Of a DNA stretch of 64,000 bases, positions 52,595 to 62,322 are shown piece after piece (position 1 is the first letter of the stretch; every line of letters begins with the position of its first letter). Under the pieces are notes generated by a model that saw nothing but the letters and a program-made list of their open reading frames with translations, was not told the DNA's origin and did not search any database. The position numbers and the translations under genes are program-made. Source of the DNA: Christensenellales bacterium (lineage in GTDB: Bacteria > Bacillota > Clostridia > Christensenellales > DTU072); contig JBNRMV010000001.1 of the NCBI GenBank assembly GCA_050309775.1, positions 95,014 to 159,013 of the forward strand, given 5' to 3'.

Positions 52595-54688
52595 TTAGTT
52601 TACGCTGTACAATATCTCCCCGTATGCCGGATAGGGCCAGTATTTTTTGGCGACCAGCGTTTCAAGTTCGTCCACAACGCTGCGCAGCGTTTGCATTGAC
52701 AAAAAGACATTGTCATGATAATGCAAAGCTGTTTCATAGCAGTACCTGTCTTTACTGGCTTGCAGAACGGAAATTTCCAGAGCGTTGATTTTGCTGTACA
52801 TTGATGCCGACAGCGATGATATTTTTGTCAGTAGGGTTTGTTCAAGCGTGCAGTCAAGTTCTATGCCCAGCGATTTTTTACTTGCCACAAGTTCTGAAAG
52901 TTCCTTTGAGAAGGTGACAATGGCAGGGATTATGTCTTTTTTGACCATGTCCAAAATAGTCAGCGCCTCAATATGAATTATTTTGCAATAGTTTTCAAAC
53001 ATAATCTCCTGACGGGAATGCACTTCGTTTTCGGTGAAGATGCCGTGCCGCTCAAAAAGCTCTATGTTCTTTTTGTTTGTGAAACAGGGCAGTGCGTCAA
53101 CGGTGGACTTCATATTTAATAGCCCTCTCTTTGCTGCCTCCTGCGTCCATGCCTCGGAATAGTTGTTGCCGTTGAAGATTATTTTTTTGTGCTTCTTTAT
53201 GGTTTGGCTGATAAGATTGTTCAGTTCAGCATTGAAGTCCTCGGCATTTTCCAGAATGTCGGCAAACTCCTTCAAAGCGTCGGCAACTATGGTGTTTATG
53301 ACGATATTTGCGCCTGAAATGCTGCTGGACGAGCCGGGCATTCTGAATTCAAACTTGTTTCCTGTGAAAGCAAAAGGACTGGTTCTGTTGCGGTCGGTGG
53401 TATCCTTCGGGAAATAAGGCAAAGTGTCGACGCCTATTTCCAGACGGGATACGGCTTTGGCGCTGTACTTTGTTTTTGTTTCAAGGGATTCCAGAATGGA
53501 GGTAAGCTCATCACCCAAGAACATTGAAATGATAGCCGGCGGCGCTTCGTTGGCGCCCAAACGGTGGTCATTGCCTGCGCTGGCTACGCTGAGGCGCAAC
53601 AAATCCTGATACTCATCTACCGCCTTGATTATGGCGGTAAGGAATAGCAAAAATTGCGCGTTGTCGCAGGGAGTGTCGCCCGGCTCAAGCAGATTTATGC
53701 CCTTGTTGGTAATAATGGACCAGTTATTATGTTTGCCGCTGCCGTTTATGCCTGTAAAAGGCTTTTCGTGGAGCAGACACGCCATGCCGTGCTTGTTTGC
53801 CAGCGTTTTTAGCGTTTCCATGGTTATTTGATTATGGTCGGTGGCAATGTTTGTTGTTTGGAATATGGGCGCAAGTTCATGCTGCGCCGGCGCTACTTCG
53901 TTGTGCTTGGTCTTTGCCAGCACGCCCATTTTCCACAATTGTTCGTCAAGTTCTGCCATGAATGCCGCTACTCTGGGTTTTATGGCGCCGAAATAATGGT
54001 CCTCAAGGTCCTGTCCTTTCGGCGGTCTGGCTCCAAGCAGCGTCCTGCCGCAATACATAAGGTCAGGTCTGCGGTTGAGCATGGAGCGGTCTATAAGGAA
54101 GTATTCTTGTTCGGGTCCGACGGTGGTTGTGACAGATACTGTGTCCTCGTGACCGAACAATTTCAAAATTCTTTTGGCTTGTTTTGAGATGACTTGCATT
54201 GAGCGCAGCAAAGGCGTTTTTTTGTCAAGCACCTCTCCGCCGTATGAGCAGAATGCCGTAGGTATGCAAAGAGTGCCGTCTTTTATGAAAGCATAGGAGG
54301 TGGGGTCCCATGCGGTATAGCCTCTTGCTTCAAAAGTTGCGCGCAAGCCGCCCGAGGGAAAACTTGAAGCGTCAGGCTCGCCTTTTATTAGGGACTTGCC
54401 CGAGAATTCCATAATGACCCTGCCGTCTCTTGTCGGCGTGATAAAGCTGTCGTGTTTTTCGGCGGTGATACCTGTCATCGGCTGGAACCAATGGGTATAA
54501 TGCGTCACGCCTTGTTCGACTGCCCAGTCTTTCATTGCGCTTGCGACGGTGTCGGCAATATCTGCAGACAGCGGCTCGCCATTAAATATGGTTCTTTTCA
54601 GCGCCTTGTAAGTTTCGTGCGGCAGTCTGTCGCGCATAACCTTATCATTAAAGACCAGCGAACCGAAAATTTCACTAACATTTTTCAT
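52595..54688 (-). CDS. glnN: Glutamine synthetase type III
   Basis: About 697 aa with a GSIII-type N-terminus ([16 protein letters not shown]) and catalytic blocks ([19 protein letters not shown]). ATG 54688 follows an AGGAGG RBS, and the track ORF extends upstream spuriously. Confidence 0.9.
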
Positions 54689-54707
54689 CCAAAACCTCCT
54701 TATGTTA

Positions 54708-54752
54708 TAAAAAAAGCGCCGTAGGTGAAACAACCTACAGCGCCATTGCTGT
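54708..54752 (-). promoter_or_regulatory. glnN leader attenuator: 5' hexaloop hairpin overlapping an intrinsic terminator
   Basis: The minus-strand RNA reads ACAGC-AAUGGC-GCUGU, then GGCGCUGUAGGU-uguuuc-ACCUACGGCGC followed by U7, ending about 10 nt before the RBS. No upstream minus-strand gene exists for it to terminate. Confidence 0.6.
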
Positions 54753-54759
54753 TTGTAAT

Positions 54760-54789
54760 AGTATAGTATATGTTTTTGCGGACAGTCAA
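54760..54789 (-). promoter_or_regulatory. Candidate glnN promoter
   Basis: On the minus strand: TTGACT (54784-54789), an 18-nt spacer, then TATACT (54760-54765). Confidence 0.45.
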
Positions 54790-54880
54790 GTATTTTGATA
54801 AGAAAAATACAAAAAAAATGATAATCTGTTGCCGTAAGATTTTCTTGGAAGATTTTTTTGAAAATGTACATCGAAAATAT

Positions 54881-54909
54881 TTGACATCATATATATGGTA
54901 ATGTAATAT
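54881..54909 (+). promoter_or_regulatory. Promoter of the split glutamate synthase operon
   Basis: TTGACA (54881-54886), a 17-nt spacer, then TAATAT (54904-54909). Confidence 0.65.
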
Positions 54910-54921
54910 AAAATTATAAAC

Positions 54922-54990
54922 GGACAAAGGCGTTCATCAATATAGAAGACCTAACAAAAGGGAGTTTTCTGCATTGATGAGCGCCTTTTT
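54922..54990 (+). promoter_or_regulatory. GOGAT-operon leader attenuator: 5' hexaloop hairpin overlapping a long terminator
   Basis: GGAC-AAAGGC-GUUC (54922-54935). A 13-bp stem GGCGUUCAUCAAU / AUUGAUGAGCGCC (54929-54941 with 54973-54985) is followed by UUUUU. No upstream plus-strand gene exists for it to terminate. Confidence 0.55.
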
Positions 54991-55020
54991 CTATTTTAGC
55001 AAAAGAAGGAGAAAGACAGC

Positions 55021-56103
55021 ATGCAAAGAGAAGGAGAAGTCAGAATTCCGTCGGGCTGCGCCATATCGGGGATATTTCACAAGAAAGGCGGCAACATAAA
55101 CGGCAGAGAAATAATAAAATCCATAGCTGTAATGCACGACAGGTCAAACGGCTTGGGCGGTGGCTTTGCCGGATACGGCATATATCCCGAGTATAAGAAT
55201 TATTATGCCTTCCATGTTTTTTATGACGACAAAGCCGCAAAAGAAAGGTGCGAAGTTTTTTTAGAGAACCATTTTGACATAGTAAATCTGTCGCGCATTC
55301 CCACGAAAAAAATTGATAAAATAAGGAATGAGCCTCTCATTTGGCGGTATTTTGTTACGCCGCTGCCCACAAAACTTGCCAGTCGGCAGCTTGACGAAAG
55401 GGAATATGTGGCGCAGTGCGTAATAAATATAAACAGCAAGATAGACGGCGCCTATATCTTTTCCAGCGGCAAGAATATGGGTGTTTTTAAGGCGGTGGGA
55501 TATCCCGAAGATGTCGGAGAATTTTATATGCTGGACAACTATGAGGGCTATTGCTGGACGGCGCATGGCAGATATCCCACGAACACCCCGGGTTGGTGGG
55601 GCGGTGCGCACCCGTTCGGCATTTTGGACTATTCAGTGGTGCATAACGGCGAAATAAGCTCCTATGACGCAAACAGAAGATATATTGAAAGTTATGGCTA
55701 TAAATGTAATCTCTTGACGGATACGGAAGTAATAAGCTATATCATTGACTTTCTTAACCGCCGTCAGCAATTGAGTTTTCTGGACATAGCCGGCGTAATT
55801 GCCGCGCCATTTTGGTCGACAATATCAAAACTTGACGAAGAACAGCAACAAAAACTGACCTATTTCCGCAACAATTATGCCAGTTTACTTATCACCGGGC
55901 CTTTTTCAATATTAGTAGGCAGTCAGGGCAGGCTGATGGCGCTTAATGACAGGCTCAAACTGCGTTCGCTTGTCGTGGCGGAAAATGATGATATGGCTTA
56001 TGTGGCAAGCGAGGAGTGCGCCATAAGAATACTTGAGCCGCAAATAACAAAATTGTATGCGCCAAAGGGCGGAGAAGCTGTGGTGTTCAGCTTAGAGGAA
56101 TAA
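55021..56103 (+). CDS. Glutamate synthase, class-II glutamine amidotransferase domain protein (GltB domain 1)
   Basis: A propeptide precedes CAISGI (Ntn Cys), followed by HGRYPTNT and HNGEISSY motifs. Confidence 0.85.
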   Translation: MQREGEVRIPSGCAISGIFHKKGGNINGREIIKSIAVMHDRSNGLGGGFAGYGIYPEYKNYYAFHVFYDDKAAKERCEVFLENHFDIVNLSRIPTKKIDKIRNEPLIWRYFVTPLPTKLASRQLDEREYVAQCVININSKIDGAYIFSSGKNMGVFKAVGYPEDVGEFYMLDNYEGYCWTAHGRYPTNTPGWWGGAHPFGILDYSVVHNGEISSYDANRRYIESYGYKCNLLTDTEVISYIIDFLNRRQQLSFLDIAGVIAAPFWSTISKLDEEQQQKLTYFRNNYASLLITGPFSILVGSQGRLMALNDRLKLRSLVVAENDDMAYVASEECAIRILEPQITKLYAPKGGEAVVFSLEE

Positions 56104-56106
56104 TAT

Positions 56107-57606
56107 ATGGAATACTTATTTAATGAATATGAAGTAGAGAGAGACGATTATCGCTGCTCAAGGTGCGAGGTGTGCGCCAAGCAATGCGCCAACGGTGTGC
56201 ATAAACTTAACGAGCTGACCAAGTCAATGGAAGCCGACAACTTCAAATGCGTAAATTGTCACAGGTGCGTCAGCCTTTGTCCGTCAAATGCGCTGAAAAT
56301 AATCAAAAACCGCCATACATTCAAAGACAATGCCAACTGGTCAAGGGATAACATAACCGAGATATTCAAACAAGCCGCTACCGGCGGAGTGCTGTTGTCG
56401 AGCATGGGAAACCCAAAGGATTATCCGGGGTATTTTGACCGAATGCTGATAAACGCATCTCAAGTCACCAACCCGTCCATTGACCCGCTGCGTGAACCTA
56501 TGGAAACAAAGACCTTTTTGGGTAAAAAAATTACGGACATTGTGCGTGACTCTCAGGGCAACACAGTGTATAAGAACAAACCCGTGCTGGAACTTTCTGT
56601 GCCGATAATGTTTTCTGCAATGTCATACGGCTCAATAAGCTACAACGCGCATGAAAGTCTGGCGAGGGCAAGCCGGGAGTTGGGCATTTATTACAACACC
56701 GGAGAGGGCGGATTGCACAAGGATTTTTATGGCTATGGCGCAAACACCATAGTGCAGGTAGCGTCAGGCAGGTTCGGCGTACACAAAGAGTATCTTGAAA
56801 CAAGCGCGGCTATTGAAATAAAAATGGGACAGGGTGCAAAACCCGGCATTGGCGGACATCTCCCCGGCTATAAAATAATAAAAGACATCTCCGAAACCAG
56901 AATGATACCCGAAGGCAGCGACGCCATATCGCCAGCGCCTCACCATGACATTTATTCCATTGAGGACTTGCGGCAGCTGGTCTATTCGCTGAAAGAGGTA
57001 ACAAACTACAAGAAACCCATTATAGTCAAAATTGCCGCAGTGCATAATGTGGCGGCTATTGCCAGCGGCGTTGCTAGAAGCGGCGCCGACATAATAGCCA
57101 TAGACGGCTACCGCGGCGGCACAGGAGCCGCACCAACAAGAATTAGGGACAATGTGGGCATACCCATTGAACTGGCTCTTGCCGCCGTTGACGAAAGACT
57201 GCGGCGGGAGGGCATAAGAGAGGAAGTGTCAATAGTAGTCGGAGGCAGCATCAGAAACAGCGCCGATGTTGTAAAGGCGGTTGCGCTGGGCGCCGACGCC
57301 GTTTATATAGCTACAAGCGCGCTGATTGCGCTGGGGTGCCATTTGTGCAGAAACTGTCAGATGGGCAAGTGCAACTGGGGCATAGCCACTCAGGACGCCG
57401 AACTTGTAAGAAGGCTGAATCCCGATATCGGCAGCAAGCGGTTGGTAAACCTCATAACCGCTTGGCAACACGAAATAAAAGAAATGATGGGCGGCATGGG
57501 CATAAATTCAATTGAAGCATTGAAAGGCAACAGGTTTATGCTGCGCGGCATTGGACTGAACGCAAAAGAATTGGACATTCTCGGCATAAAGCATGCAGGG
57601 GAATAG
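56107..57606 (+). CDS. Glutamate synthase FMN/Fe-S domain protein with an N-terminal 2x[4Fe-4S] ferredoxin module (GltB domain 2)
   Basis: CSRCEVCAKQC...CVNCHRCVSLCP, then the FMN-domain blocks KMGQGAKPGIGGHLPG, SPAPHHDIYSIEDL and DGYRGGTGAAP. Confidence 0.88.
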   Translation: MEYLFNEYEVERDDYRCSRCEVCAKQCANGVHKLNELTKSMEADNFKCVNCHRCVSLCPSNALKIIKNRHTFKDNANWSRDNITEIFKQAATGGVLLSSMGNPKDYPGYFDRMLINASQVTNPSIDPLREPMETKTFLGKKITDIVRDSQGNTVYKNKPVLELSVPIMFSAMSYGSISYNAHESLARASRELGIYYNTGEGGLHKDFYGYGANTIVQVASGRFGVHKEYLETSAAIEIKMGQGAKPGIGGHLPGYKIIKDISETRMIPEGSDAISPAPHHDIYSIEDLRQLVYSLKEVTNYKKPIIVKIAAVHNVAAIASGVARSGADIIAIDGYRGGTGAAPTRIRDNVGIPIELALAAVDERLRREGIREEVSIVVGGSIRNSADVVKAVALGADAVYIATSALIALGCHLCRNCQMGKCNWGIATQDAELVRRLNPDIGSKRLVNLITAWQHEIKEMMGGMGINSIEALKGNRFMLRGIGLNAKELDILGIKHAGE

Positions 57607-57649
57607 CCGAAATGCAAAAACTTTTTTCAAAAAAATTTGGAGGCAACAT

Positions 57650-58369
57650 ATGGTCATAAATGCGAAAAACATAAATTTTGACGAACTCAACGCCGCCATA
57701 AGGCAAAGTCCGGATACTGAGATATTTATAAAAAACTGTTACGGACAGCGTTATATCGGAACGGGAGTAGAAGGCAAGCAAATACACATAGAGGGTACGG
57801 CAGGCAACGCCACCGGCGCCTATTTGAATGGCACGGATATTTTTGTCAAAGGCAATGCGCAAGACGCAATCGGCGATACTATGAACGCAGGCAAGATTGT
57901 CATTGACGGCAACGCAAGAGACGGCACGGGATACGGTGCCCGAGGCGGCAAAATATATATAAAAGGCAGCGTGGGATACCGCGCAGGCATACATATGAAA
58001 GCTTACAAAGACAAAAGACCCGTGCTGATTGTCGGAGAAAAGAGTGGCAGTTTTTTAGGGGAATATCAGGCAGGCGGTTATATAATTATTCTCAACCTTT
58101 CGGATACGCCCGGCAGTTTGGCAGGCAACTTCTGCGCTACGGGAATGCATGGCGGAAAGATGTTTTTCCGCACAAATACGCCGCTTGAAATAAATAGCGC
58201 CACGCTGATAACGCAAAAGGCGCAAGCAAACGACATGGCGGAGATTTTGCCGTATCTTGAAGAATATTGCGACTTACTGAATGTCGACAAAAAGATTCTT
58301 AGCGACGCATATCACATGATATTGCCCAATACCGTCAATCCTTACAAGCAGCTGTATACTTATAATTGA
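57650..58369 (+). CDS. Glutamate synthase GXGXG-repeat domain protein (GltB domain 3)
   Basis: Repeats GTAGNATGAYLNG, GNAQDAIGDTMNAG, GNARDGTGYGARGG and GSVGYRAG. ATG 57650 follows a GGAGG RBS. Confidence 0.85.
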   Translation: MVINAKNINFDELNAAIRQSPDTEIFIKNCYGQRYIGTGVEGKQIHIEGTAGNATGAYLNGTDIFVKGNAQDAIGDTMNAGKIVIDGNARDGTGYGARGGKIYIKGSVGYRAGIHMKAYKDKRPVLIVGEKSGSFLGEYQAGGYIIILNLSDTPGSLAGNFCATGMHGGKMFFRTNTPLEINSATLITQKAQANDMAEILPYLEEYCDLLNVDKKILSDAYHMILPNTVNPYKQLYTYN

Positions 58370-58434
58370 AAGATTATTGCAGGCTTGCTTGAATAAAAAA
58401 ACAAATCAATCAGATTTATCGCATATCATCCTTG

Positions 58435-58463
58435 TTTACAAATATGCGTAAAAAGGTTATTAT
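58435..58463 (+). promoter_or_regulatory. Candidate glnA promoter (short, unstructured leader)
   Basis: TTTACA, a 17-nt spacer, then TATTAT (58458-58463). Confidence 0.5.
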
Positions 58464-58489
58464 AAATATATTGAATTACGGAGGAACAT

Positions 58490-59806
58490 ATGAACAATTT
58501 TTCTGTGGCTGAAGTCATAAAATTCGTTCGGGACAATGATGTCAAGTTTATTCGGCTGGCATTTTGCGACATTTTCGGAGAAATGAAGAATATCTCAATT
58601 ATGCCGTCAGAACTGCCAAAGGCGTTTGACACGGGCATTCCTTTTGACGCTTCGGCAATAAAAGGCTTTATGAATGTGGAGGAGTCGGATTTATTCCTTG
58701 TGCCTGACGCTTCAACAATGGCAATATTGCCATGGCGGCCGTCACAAGGCGGAGTTATCCGGTTTTTTTGCAACATACGCATGCCCGACGGCAGACCTTT
58801 CGAGGGTGACGGCAGAAATTTGCTGAAACAAGCCGTCAGCTATGCCGCCTCAAAAGACTATACTATTAAGGTAGGTACGGAGTGCGAGTTTTATTTGTTT
58901 GAGCTTGACGAACATGGCAGACCCACACGCAAGCCCCATGACGATTGCGGCTATTGCGATATTGCGCCTTTGGATAAGGGCGAAAATGTACGCAGAGAGA
59001 TTTGCCTGACATTGGAAGAAATGGGCATATATCCCGAGATGTCGCATCATGAACAAGGCAGGGGACAGCACGAAATTGTGTTCAAGTACAGCGAGGCTCT
59101 GAAAGCCGTCGACAATCTTGTCACCTTCAAATCTGTCGTCAAAGTCATTGCCGCCAGACACGGGCTGCATGCCAGCTTTATGCCAAAGCCGTTGATAGGC
59201 TCCAGCGGCAGCGGTCTGCACATCAATCTTTCGCTTTTCCGTGAGCATAAGAATGTGTTTGATATGAAAGGTTCGACAAAGGGCATCTCCGAAAGTTTTG
59301 TGGCCGGCATAATGGACTGCATTGAGGAAATAAGCGTTTTTACAAACCCGATAAAAAACTCCTATGCCAGACTTGGGGAATACGAGGCGCCGAGATATGT
59401 TTCATGGTCCTGCGGCAATCGTTCGCAATTGGTGCGCATACCTGCCGCAGAGGGCGACTTGCGCAGAATGGAGTTGCGCAGCCCAGACCCTGCATGTTCT
59501 TCTTATATTGCGTTGGCGCTGCTGATATATGCCGGCATTGAGGGTATTGACCGCAAGGCAGAGCTTGACCCCCCGATGAACATTAATCTTTTTGAGGGCG
59601 GCAAGGAAACAAAGAGCTTGCGAAAGTTGCCCAAGACGCTTGACGAAGCCATAAAGAAAGCCGCCTCCAGCCAATTTGTAAAGGCGCATCTGCCGGCATC
59701 AATGTTGTCAAAATATCTGAAATATAAAAAAGAGGAAAGCCAGAAGTTTACCGAAAGCATTGATGCGCAAGGCGCCGAAATGGACTATTATTTTAACAGA
59801 TTATAG
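58490..59806 (+). CDS. glnA: Glutamine synthetase type I
   Basis: FIRLAFCDIFG, GTECEFYLF, MSHHEQGRGQHEI and NRSQLVRIP motifs; 438 aa. Confidence 0.93.
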   Translation: MNNFSVAEVIKFVRDNDVKFIRLAFCDIFGEMKNISIMPSELPKAFDTGIPFDASAIKGFMNVEESDLFLVPDASTMAILPWRPSQGGVIRFFCNIRMPDGRPFEGDGRNLLKQAVSYAASKDYTIKVGTECEFYLFELDEHGRPTRKPHDDCGYCDIAPLDKGENVRREICLTLEEMGIYPEMSHHEQGRGQHEIVFKYSEALKAVDNLVTFKSVVKVIAARHGLHASFMPKPLIGSSGSGLHINLSLFREHKNVFDMKGSTKGISESFVAGIMDCIEEISVFTNPIKNSYARLGEYEAPRYVSWSCGNRSQLVRIPAAEGDLRRMELRSPDPACSSYIALALLIYAGIEGIDRKAELDPPMNINLFEGGKETKSLRKLPKTLDEAIKKAASSQFVKAHLPASMLSKYLKYKKEESQKFTESIDAQGAEMDYYFNRL

Positions 59807-59846: not shown

Positions 59847-60413
59847 ATGGACAGGGCTATGATAGTATCCGGCTCCGAAAAGAGTCTGGAAGAGCTATGC
59901 AGCATACTAAAAACCTGCGGAATAAACCAAATCAGCATAATAAATAACTGCGCCGAATCGCGCAGAAGTCTTGTCAGCGGCGAAAAAACCGTAATTATCA
60001 TCAATACTCCGCTCACAGATGAGTTCGGCACGGCTTTTGCGCTGCATGCCACGAGGACAAACGCCGGCATAATAATGCTGGTAAGGTCGGAACTTGCCGA
60101 AGATATTGCCTGCAAGGTAGAAAACGACGGAGTCATTGTCGTTGCAAAACCCCTGCAAAAGTCAGCGCTCTTTCAAGCCGTACGACTGGCAATCTCTATG
60201 AACAGAAGAATAATGGGCGTAAAGAACGAAAACTTGCAGTTGCAAAGAAAACTTGAAGAAATGAAAGTTATTGACCGCGCCAAATGTCTGCTCATTCAGT
60301 GCCTTTCCATGACAGAGCCTCAGGCGCATAGGTTCATAGAAAAACAAGCTATGGATATGCGTATCAGCAAAACAGCGGTGGCGGAAGGCATTTTGAAAAC
60401 CTACGAATCATAA
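59847..60413 (+). CDS. ANTAR-domain RNA-binding antiterminator with a pseudo-receiver N-domain
   Basis: The C-terminal ANTAR motif is VIDRAKCLLIQCLSMTEPQAHRFIEKQAMDMRISKTAVAEGIL. The N-domain is REC-like, but the phospho-acceptor position reads IIINTPL (Asn). ATG 59847 follows GGGAGGAGG. Confidence 0.85.
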   Translation: MDRAMIVSGSEKSLEELCSILKTCGINQISIINNCAESRRSLVSGEKTVIIINTPLTDEFGTAFALHATRTNAGIIMLVRSELAEDIACKVENDGVIVVAKPLQKSALFQAVRLAISMNRRIMGVKNENLQLQRKLEEMKVIDRAKCLLIQCLSMTEPQAHRFIEKQAMDMRISKTAVAEGILKTYES

Positions 60414-62159: not shown

Positions 62160-62188
62160 TTGCACACTAAAACAAAATATGTTATTAT
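62160..62188 (+). promoter_or_regulatory. Candidate promoter of the lipoprotein leader
   Basis: TTGCAC, a 17-nt spacer, then TATTAT (62183-62188). Confidence 0.45.
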
Positions 62189-62212
62189 ATGTGCATATCC
62201 GATTCTATTTTC

Positions 62213-62290
62213 CTAAGGCAGTGGCTACGGAACTTAGAACGATAGGGCAAGGGCAGAAATGCCTTTACCTTCCGGTGCGAAAAGGGTATG
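62213..62290 (+). promoter_or_regulatory. Structured leader (riboswitch-like, unclassified) with an antiterminator segment
   Basis: Three hairpins: CUAAG/CUUAG (62213-62237), AAGGGCA-GAAA-UGCCUUU (62249-62266) and ACCUU/AAGGGU (62267-62287). GGUGCGAAAAGGG (62275-62286) can instead pair with the left arm of the terminator. Confidence 0.5.
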
Positions 62291-62322
62291 CTCTCTTTTC
62301 GTGCGGAAAAGAGAGTTTTTTT
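62291..62322 (+). terminator. Leader terminator directly upstream of the lipoprotein RBS
   Basis: Perfect 10-bp stem CUCUCUUUUC-gugcg-GAAAAGAGAG followed by U7. The upstream gene is on the other strand. Confidence 0.8.

Follow-up and report, generated by a model that had tools for sequence, protein, structure and literature searches.

The 64,000-nucleotide (nt) stretch of DNA analysed here, hereafter the window, comes from a Christensenellales bacterium (GenBank assembly GCA_050309775.1, contig JBNRMV010000001.1, positions 95,014 to 159,013, forward strand) and holds a nitrogen-assimilation island in which glnN is divergent from an operon encoding glutamate synthase (GOGAT), the glutamine synthetase (GS) GlnA and an ANTAR-domain regulator. 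The intergenic region between them is 332 nt long and contains both leaders, each with a short hexaloop hairpin overlapping an intrinsic terminator. We present evidence that this module is a conserved attenuator, and we propose that the ANTAR protein encoded after glnA acts on it through a single hexaloop. The genes and leader elements are, in window positions:

52595 to 54688, minus strand: glnN, type III GS of 697 amino acids (aa) (Pfam GSIII_N 9.7e-82, Gln-synt_C-ter 7e-45, Gln-synt_C)
54709 to 54744, minus strand: glnN leader intrinsic terminator, 12-bp stem GGCGCUGUAGGU/ACCUACGGCGCU, loop UGUUUC, then U7 (terminator scan, minimum free energy (MFE) fold)
54737 to 54752, minus strand: putative glnN antiterminator hairpin ACAGC-AAUGGC-GCUGU, a hexaloop with A1 and G4 (direct sequence reading)
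54760 to 54789, minus strand: predicted glnN promoter, -35 box TTGACT at 54789-54784, 18-nt spacer, -10 box TATACT at 54765-54760 (consensus scan, 10/12)
54881 to 54909, plus strand: predicted GOGAT operon promoter, TTGACA, 17-nt spacer, TAATAT (consensus scan, 10/12)
54922 to 54935, plus strand: putative GOGAT antiterminator hairpin GGAC-AAAGGC-GUUC, a hexaloop with A1 and G4 on 4 bp including one G-U (direct sequence reading)
54926 to 54997, plus strand: GOGAT leader intrinsic terminator, long imperfect hairpin AAAGGCGUUCAUCAAU...AUUGAUGAGCGCCUUU, then UUCUAUUUU (MFE fold, covariance model R1)
55021 to 58369, plus strand: split (archaeal-type) glutamate synthase (Pfam GATase_2, Glu_synthase 1.6e-139, GXGXG 1e-26), with open reading frames (ORFs) for an amidotransferase (55021-56103), an FMN/Fe-S subunit (56107-57606) and a GXGXG subunit (to 58369)
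58490 to 59806, plus strand: glnA, type I GS (Pfam Gln-synt_C 1.2e-99, Gln-synt_N)
59847 to 60413, plus strand: NitR-like regulator of 188 aa with pseudo-receiver, coiled coil and ANTAR domain (Pfam ANTAR 3.7e-17), the proposed effector

Reading the sequence placed both hairpins where the initial annotation had located them, along with the rest of the architecture that it had described: in each leader the base of the terminator is built from the loop residues G4-G5-C6 together with the hairpin's 3' arm, and a U-run then precedes a ribosome-binding site (U7 and AGGAGG for glnN, UUUUUCUAUUUU and GAAGGAG for GOGAT). In the glnN leader, the -10 box of the consensus scan ends 7 nt ahead of the hairpin, the terminator GGCGCUGUAGGU-UGUUUC-ACCUACGGCGCU occupies 54744-54715 with its 5' arm beginning at loop position G4, and the U7 tract (54715-54709) is followed by AGGAGG at 54700-54695 and the ATG at 54688. 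In the GOGAT leader, the corresponding -10 box ends 12 nt ahead of the hairpin, and the terminator hairpin runs from 54926/54929 to 54985, followed by UUUUUCUAUUUU at 54986-54997, GAAGGAG and the ATG at 55021. Both MFE folds adopted the terminator conformation, the glnN leader at -21.5 kcal/mol (z -3.6) and the GOGAT leader at -36.4 kcal/mol (z -6.6). Taken alone, the glnN hairpin reached -5.4 kcal/mol and its terminator -20.1 kcal/mol, and for GOGAT the values were -1.1 and -33.0 kcal/mol. Metatranscriptome contigs of low depth from anaerobic digesters extended over glnN and into its leader as far as 54729-54734, while 54764-55033 had no contig, a coverage compatible with the predicted glnN start but too shallow to establish it or to reveal premature termination.

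The two leaders share the 8-mer CAAWGGCG, as had been pointed out, but its value as a genome-wide marker was rejected, with 400 occurrences, mostly in coding sequence, in a genome of 1.98 Mb where 88 were expected from composition. What counts is the conservation of the structured module, the 8-mer alone being uninformative. Similarly, a loose scan of the same genome for an A..G.. hexaloop with a downstream complement and a T-run returned 571 matches against 585 in a reversed-sequence control, and only the strict AA.GGY form found in the leaders stood out over it. The structured scan and a covariance model built from the module (R1) revealed a further site on another contig, in front of the following gene:

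Contig C8, 21540-23513, outside the window: amt-PII, ammonium transporter (Amt) of 578 aa with a fused C-terminal PII (GlnB/GlnK-like) domain

The amt-PII leader carries two tandem modules, UAGC-AAAGGU-GCUG and GCAC-AAAGGC-GUGU, about 100 nt apart, with one terminator each and a consensus promoter ahead. This brings the genome to three transcription units and four attenuators, all in ammonium assimilation, with the loops AAUGGC, AAAGGC, AAAGGU and AAAGGC, each having A1 and G4. The GOGAT terminator scored 39.1 bits with R1, and generic terminators of the genome (AAAAGGCGC...GCGCCUUUU) reached 26-28 bits in the absence of the 5' arm. Weaker R1 matches in this genome (C1:10452, C1:37977 and others) were rejected as ordinary gene-end terminators lacking the 5' arm.

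A covariance search against Rfam, suggested by the initial annotation, yielded no match in the leaders at gathering score. The whole window at gathering score and 54600-55100 at E<=10 gave nothing credible there; the best leader matches, cow-rumen-4 (E 0.48) and trpB (E 1.9), involved the terminator part only, and the best E-value was at least 0.18. Neither the glutamine riboswitch nor other cis-regulatory families of Rfam had a curated covariance model matching the leaders.

The conservation of the module was evaluated in regions extracted upstream of glnN and GOGAT orthologs in 41 genomes of the same order, hereafter the relatives. The module was present in 14 glnN and 10 GOGAT orthologous leaders and recurred across many genera with compensatory changes, which sets it apart from a chance arrangement. 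The stems varied (ACAGC/GCUGU, CUAGC/GCUAC, GCAAC/GUUGC, AAGGC/GUCUU, GUAAAC/GUUUAC, AAUGAGC/GUUCAUU), those of the GOGAT orthologs measuring 4-7 bp (GAAC/GUUC, UGAAC/GUUCA, AAUGAGC/GUUCAUU), and the loop was near-invariant, AAAGGC or AAUGGC. At 40 sites in the relatives we counted AAAGGC 23 times, AAUGGC 8 times, AAAGGU 4 times and others for the rest, the A1/G4 form of these loops being partly obtained by construction because the search pattern required A..GG.

Covariation was computed on an alignment of 20 leader sequences with 500 shuffles. The hairpin helix had 92% of its cells paired and compensatory changes in 4/5 pairs, and the terminator helix 98% and 7/10 pairs, with 0/500 shuffles as good in either case; these paired-cell percentages are inflated, since a leader had to show both a hairpin and a terminator to be taken as a seed, a choice that does not touch the compensatory pattern or the gene context. 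Pairing collapsed for both helices in slid registers, and the hairpin stem is conserved as a structure, not as a sequence. The shared segment, i.e. the 3' arm of the hairpin, covaries both with the 5' arm and with the 3' arm of the terminator, which is the signature of a two-structure switch. Furthermore, the loop-side G, G, C and G are the same in every sequence, and the terminator bases opposite them are either C or U, indicating a constraint on the loop sequence beyond pairing. The properties that the initial annotation had listed for ANTAR targets, hexaloops with A1 and G4 in hairpins that overlap a terminator, are found here; the two structures are mutually exclusive and both helices covary. 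We have little doubt that the switch is real and conserved.

In the relatives, the module also stands 5' of amt, where it again occurs in tandem, and of classical gltB, carA and cynS, all genes of nitrogen metabolism. The carA case (L095, G034:C8:23612-23671) precedes a gene for the small subunit of carbamoyl-phosphate synthase and the other (L099, G028:C1:905545-905591) a cyanase-like gene, both named by eye from the N-terminus of their products; these two sites would extend the regulon past GS, GOGAT and Amt.

The regulator at the end of the GOGAT-glnA operon was recognized as an ANTAR protein, in agreement with the initial annotation, with 62.3 bits for Pfam PF03861 against a cut-off of 27.3, and the genome search identified it as the sole ANTAR ORF of the genome (64.7 bits). 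R1 matched in 23/41 relatives, and module and regulator occurred together in 20 of them, the regulator only in 3, the motif only in 3 and neither in 15 (Fisher p=7.5e-6). The three motif-only relatives had weak matches in genomes without any ANTAR domain and are probably false positives. Among the three regulator-only relatives, one genome was 51% complete, one had a gene fragment only and one had the motif when inspected by eye.

The survey was widened to 300 evenly sampled Clostridia, with the motif called at E<=1e-3 and the regulator homolog at 1e-15. The motif was present in at least 50/300 genomes and 38/176 genera, its negatives being unreliable because only 18 candidates per genome were scored with the covariance model. 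A regulator homolog was found in 38/50 motif-positive versus 55/250 motif-negative genomes (Fisher p=5.7e-13). This p-value and the preceding one overstate significance, as related genomes are not phylogenetically independent; the module-regulator pattern spans many families. Ten of the 12 motif-positive exceptions encoded a Pfam ANTAR ORF of about 190-217 aa, located <=3 kb from the motif match in at least two of them (G263, G051). In addition, the motif match lay <=14 kb from the regulator gene on the same contig in ~17 genomes.

Two members of the same genus deserve separate mention. In G005 we found no regulator, no split GOGAT and no motif, and its glnN leader is unrelated; G002 retains only a 64-aa ANTAR fragment, has glnN split in two pieces and yielded no motif match. 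Regulator and targets appear to have been lost together in both.

The structural homologs of the regulator are Rv1626 (1s8n, 1.5e-13), EutV (6wsh) and AmiR (1qo0). In the alignment, the Met172 plug of EutV is also Met in the regulator, the G4-stacking Tyr164 is replaced by His, as in AmiR (Phe in Rv1626), and most of the basic residues that touch the RNA backbone are retained; K143, K147 (as R), K149, E160, N173 (as D) and R175 are kept, R142, R168 and R177 are not. At the N-terminus, the acceptor region VIMDVKMP of Rv1626 aligns with IIINTPL, so that the phospho-acceptor Asp is absent, and there is no acidic pair after beta-1 (MIVSGSEK). The regulator thus falls outside the phosphorylatable receiver subclass of EutV and Rv1626, and its N-terminus resembles, judging from the alignment, an AmiR-type pseudo-receiver. 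The locus has no kinase gene next to the regulator. Given the missing acceptor Asp and the absence of an adjacent kinase, its activity is probably set by a protein partner or a ligand rather than by phosphorylation.

Altogether, the best explanation of these data is ANTAR-mediated antitermination of glnN, GOGAT-glnA-ANTAR and amt-PII, to which we assign a probability of about 0.8, and we regard the ANTAR protein encoded after glnA as the likely effector of the attenuators. The two-operon ANTAR regulon of the initial annotation is accordingly upheld as to its regulator, by the co-occurrence, the chromosomal linkage, the A1/G4 loops and the covarying exclusive helices, but it was drawn too narrowly, the regulon comprising at least three transcription units.

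Here we infer protein-RNA binding, the direction of regulation, its signal and the sufficiency of one hairpin, and the mechanism would run as follows. The glnN, GOGAT-glnA-ANTAR and amt-PII transcripts would start a few nt 5' of a 4-5 bp hairpin with an AAWGGC loop, of which G4-G5-C6 and the 3' arm would double as the 5' base of the intrinsic terminator. The hairpins are far weaker (-1 to -5 kcal/mol) than the terminators (-18 to -33 kcal/mol); hence termination is the default and the hairpin wins only if it is stabilised. Without active regulator, transcription would end after about 45-80 nt. With active regulator, presumably under nitrogen limitation as suggested by reports on NitR, an ANTAR dimer would clamp the nascent hexaloop hairpin and withhold the lower stem of the terminator, leading to read-through. 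As the last gene of a target operon, the regulator would be subject to positive autoregulation. The pseudo-receiver points to a partner protein, comparable to AmiC in the case of AmiR, and possible candidates are the Amt-fused PII domain and glutamine synthetase.

The most serious alternative is that the switch is real but read by another factor, such as an RNA-binding protein, a small RNA or a small-molecule ligand. Two of the 50 motif-positive Clostridia (G124, G243) have no ANTAR domain, and 55 genomes with a regulator homolog gave no covariance-model match, both of which would be accommodated by such a factor. However, the motif negatives among these genomes are unreliable, with 18 candidates scored in each, and the element and the ANTAR gene strongly co-occur and lie close together on the chromosome. 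The loop also fits the A1/G4 signature of ANTAR targets, the hairpin of 14-16 nt is too small for a ligand pocket, and the leaders match no Rfam family. We therefore hold a different reader to be improbable.

The initial annotation had found only one hairpin per leader and had given this as a caveat, canonical ANTAR sites having two. The single hairpin stands, but as a conserved and defining feature instead of a detection failure. Among 40 sites with a stem of >=4 bp, ~33 have a sigma70 promoter with 10-12 of 12 matches and a -10 hexamer ending 6-13 nt ahead of the hairpin, the others being mainly second modules of tandem arrays. Such a distance predicts a transcript start 0-6 nt before the hairpin, and this promoter position leaves no room for a transcribed P1 hairpin. 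No second A1/G4 hexaloop hairpin was conserved upstream or downstream of the sites in the relatives. The leaders thus depart from the dual P1/P2 tandem arrangement, including at amt, where the modules are ~100 nt apart and have their own terminators.

We weighed against this the view that the leaders are canonical dual-hexaloop targets whose P1 was missed, transcription starting further upstream than predicted. Characterised ANTAR targets are all dual, additional A..G.. hexaloop hairpins are slightly more frequent upstream of the sites than in shuffles (8/40 vs 4.2 +/- 1.8), and within the genus the GOGAT leader has a hairpin UAUAU-AUGGUA-AUGUA with an A1/G4 loop ~32 nt upstream of the main hairpin. 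The latter, however, lies within the TTGACA-17-TAATAT spacer and does not exist outside the genus, glnN-type leaders have no second A1/G4 loop, ~33/40 sites have a promoter ending 6-13 nt before the hairpin and no transcribed space for P1, and no metatranscriptome contig extends over 54764-55033. A missed P1 is in our opinion very unlikely.

Two further observations concern these leaders. The hairpin UAUAU-AUGGUA-AUGUA (54889-54904, plus strand) is all-A/U, conserved in the genus only and situated within the spacer predicted for the GOGAT promoter; a role like that of P1 would require a transcription start further upstream. At the tip of the GOGAT terminator (54950-54968, plus strand), a small A1/G4 hexaloop hairpin AAA-AGGGAG-UUU is possible, and the terminator tip of the G004 GOGAT leader (L098) reads AGAAUU-AGGGAU-AAUUCU. 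Such A1/G4 tip hexaloops occur in 3 of ~10 GOGAT leaders and in 0 glnN leaders. The terminator tip was rejected as a hidden P2, tip loops being unconserved and, apart from these few GOGAT exceptions, without A1/G4.

Firmicute mRNAs are shielded from 5' exonuclease by 5'-terminal stem-loops, and terminators of this genome commonly have AAAGGCG...CGCCUUU as their base, but the idea that the leaders are constitutive or kinetically tuned attenuators without dedicated regulator, their 5' hairpin being mainly an mRNA 5'-end stabiliser, is barely credible in view of the three-way covariation of 5' arm, shared segment and terminator 3' arm, the constancy of the loop sequence between different genes and families, the confinement of the element to nitrogen-assimilation genes, and G005 and G002, which have no regulator and in which the motif was likewise undetected.

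Several points weigh against ANTAR antitermination as proposed here, besides the inflated paired-cell percentages and the overstated p-values indicated above. A single hairpin working co-transcriptionally contradicts the characterised EutV, NasR and AmiR systems, in which two hairpins are needed for antitermination in vivo and in vitro (PMC8934654, PMC3369931). In the regulator, 3/11 RNA-contact residues of EutV are changed (R142M, R168E, R177S), and the conservation of AAAGGCG may partly reflect a common terminator base. Transcript evidence is limited to low-depth metatranscriptome contigs, and the binding, the termination and the 5' ends in this organism are predictions drawn from sequence. 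On balance, we find it reasonably likely that one hexaloop hairpin suffices for ANTAR antitermination. The complete picture is favoured slightly less strongly, namely that a single 5'-terminal hexaloop, lacking a P1 'recruitment' hairpin and served by a phosphorylation-independent pseudo-receiver ANTAR effector with a nitrogen-status partner, runs this regulon in many Clostridia.

Two other features of the window were noted, the first between the GOGAT and glnA genes and the second downstream of the island:

58435 to 58463, plus strand: candidate internal promoter TTTACA-17-TATTAT, 5' of glnA (10/12 consensus match alone)
62185 to 62303, plus strand: Moco riboswitch (molybdenum/tungsten cofactor), Rfam RF01055 (56.8 bits vs gathering score 36, E 5.8e-11), upstream of two lipoprotein genes

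No further attenuator was found in the 120 nt that separate glnA from the GOGAT genes (58370-58489), only this promoter-like site, which may provide a basal source of transcript for glnA and the ANTAR regulator.

The targets of EutV (eut leaders, Enterococcus faecalis), NasR (nasF, Klebsiella oxytoca) and AmiR (amiE, Pseudomonas aeruginosa) present the same A1/G4 hexaloop on a short stem of free sequence, the same overlap of the 3' side of the hairpin with the 5' arm of a terminator, the same nearby ANTAR-domain regulator and the same kind of target genes in nitrogen metabolism. By contrast, the leaders described here have one hairpin per terminator instead of P1-linker-P2, placed at the predicted extreme 5' end of the transcript, a terminator overlap that begins inside the loop, at G4, a more constrained loop (AAWGGY then G), and a regulator with a non-phosphorylatable pseudo-receiver and no adjacent kinase. 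An ANTAR dimer touches a single hexaloop, G4 stacking on an aromatic residue and the closing three bp making backbone contacts only (Walshe 2022, PMC8934654). The same authors suggested that single-hexaloop sites perhaps occur only where the polymerase sets no time limit, and called for bioinformatic searches; the single hexaloops reported here sit inside attenuators, where their model did not expect them.

The type of regulon is not new, because Firmicute ANTAR nitrogen regulons over GS, GOGAT, amt and PII were predicted earlier (Ramesh 2012, PMC3369931) and the glnA-linked NitR is known. NitR of Clostridium saccharobutylicum, encoded beside glnA, is reported to induce GS and GOGAT genes by antitermination when nitrogen is limiting (Stutz 2007, Microbiology 153:3081, as cited in PMC6316151). 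The likeness to our regulator is one of gene order, an ANTAR gene directly 3' of glnA; the regulon proposed here also takes in an amt-PII fusion, a type III GS and a split GOGAT of the archaeal type. The regulons predicted in Desulfotomaculum, Carboxydothermus, Alkaliphilus, Caldicellulosiruptor and C. thermocellum (Ramesh 2012, Table S2) likewise have attenuators ahead of GS, GOGAT, ammonium transporter and PII genes and several sites per genome, some adjoining glnA-ANTAR pairs; those sites, however, were found with a dual-hairpin covariance model and measure 45-61 nt, and ours have no second hairpin. The RAT/CAT system (BglG, SacY, LicT) likewise relies on one antiterminator hairpin that overlaps a terminator and is stabilised by a dimeric protein, but its protein fold is unrelated, its RAT RNA is a 29-30 nt hairpin with internal loops, and it serves sugar phosphotransferase system control, not nitrogen.

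Published definitions of ANTAR target RNAs are based on dual stem-loops (Ramesh 2012, PMC3369931; Mehta & Ramesh 2021). The module lacks this dual-hairpin feature of the published family and shares the other features tested, predicted ANTAR binding aside. Its unusual trait is one 5'-terminal hexaloop with no space for P1, and no published description of single-hexaloop ANTAR attenuators was found in the literature searched. Dual-hairpin covariance models would overlook such sites.

A conserved natural class of single hexaloops would allow a direct test of why two hairpins are needed in ANTAR antitermination, with a 16-nt hairpin and a 188-aa protein as a small test system. These single-hexaloop attenuators are widespread in Clostridia of anaerobic digesters, guts and rumens, and they would assign a regulator and a mechanism to the GS I, GS III, GOGAT and Amt-PII genes of many uncultured Oscillospirales. 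If our interpretation is true, a single-hairpin design, and not the textbook dual one, would control the regulon of ammonium assimilation in a substantial fraction of Clostridia.

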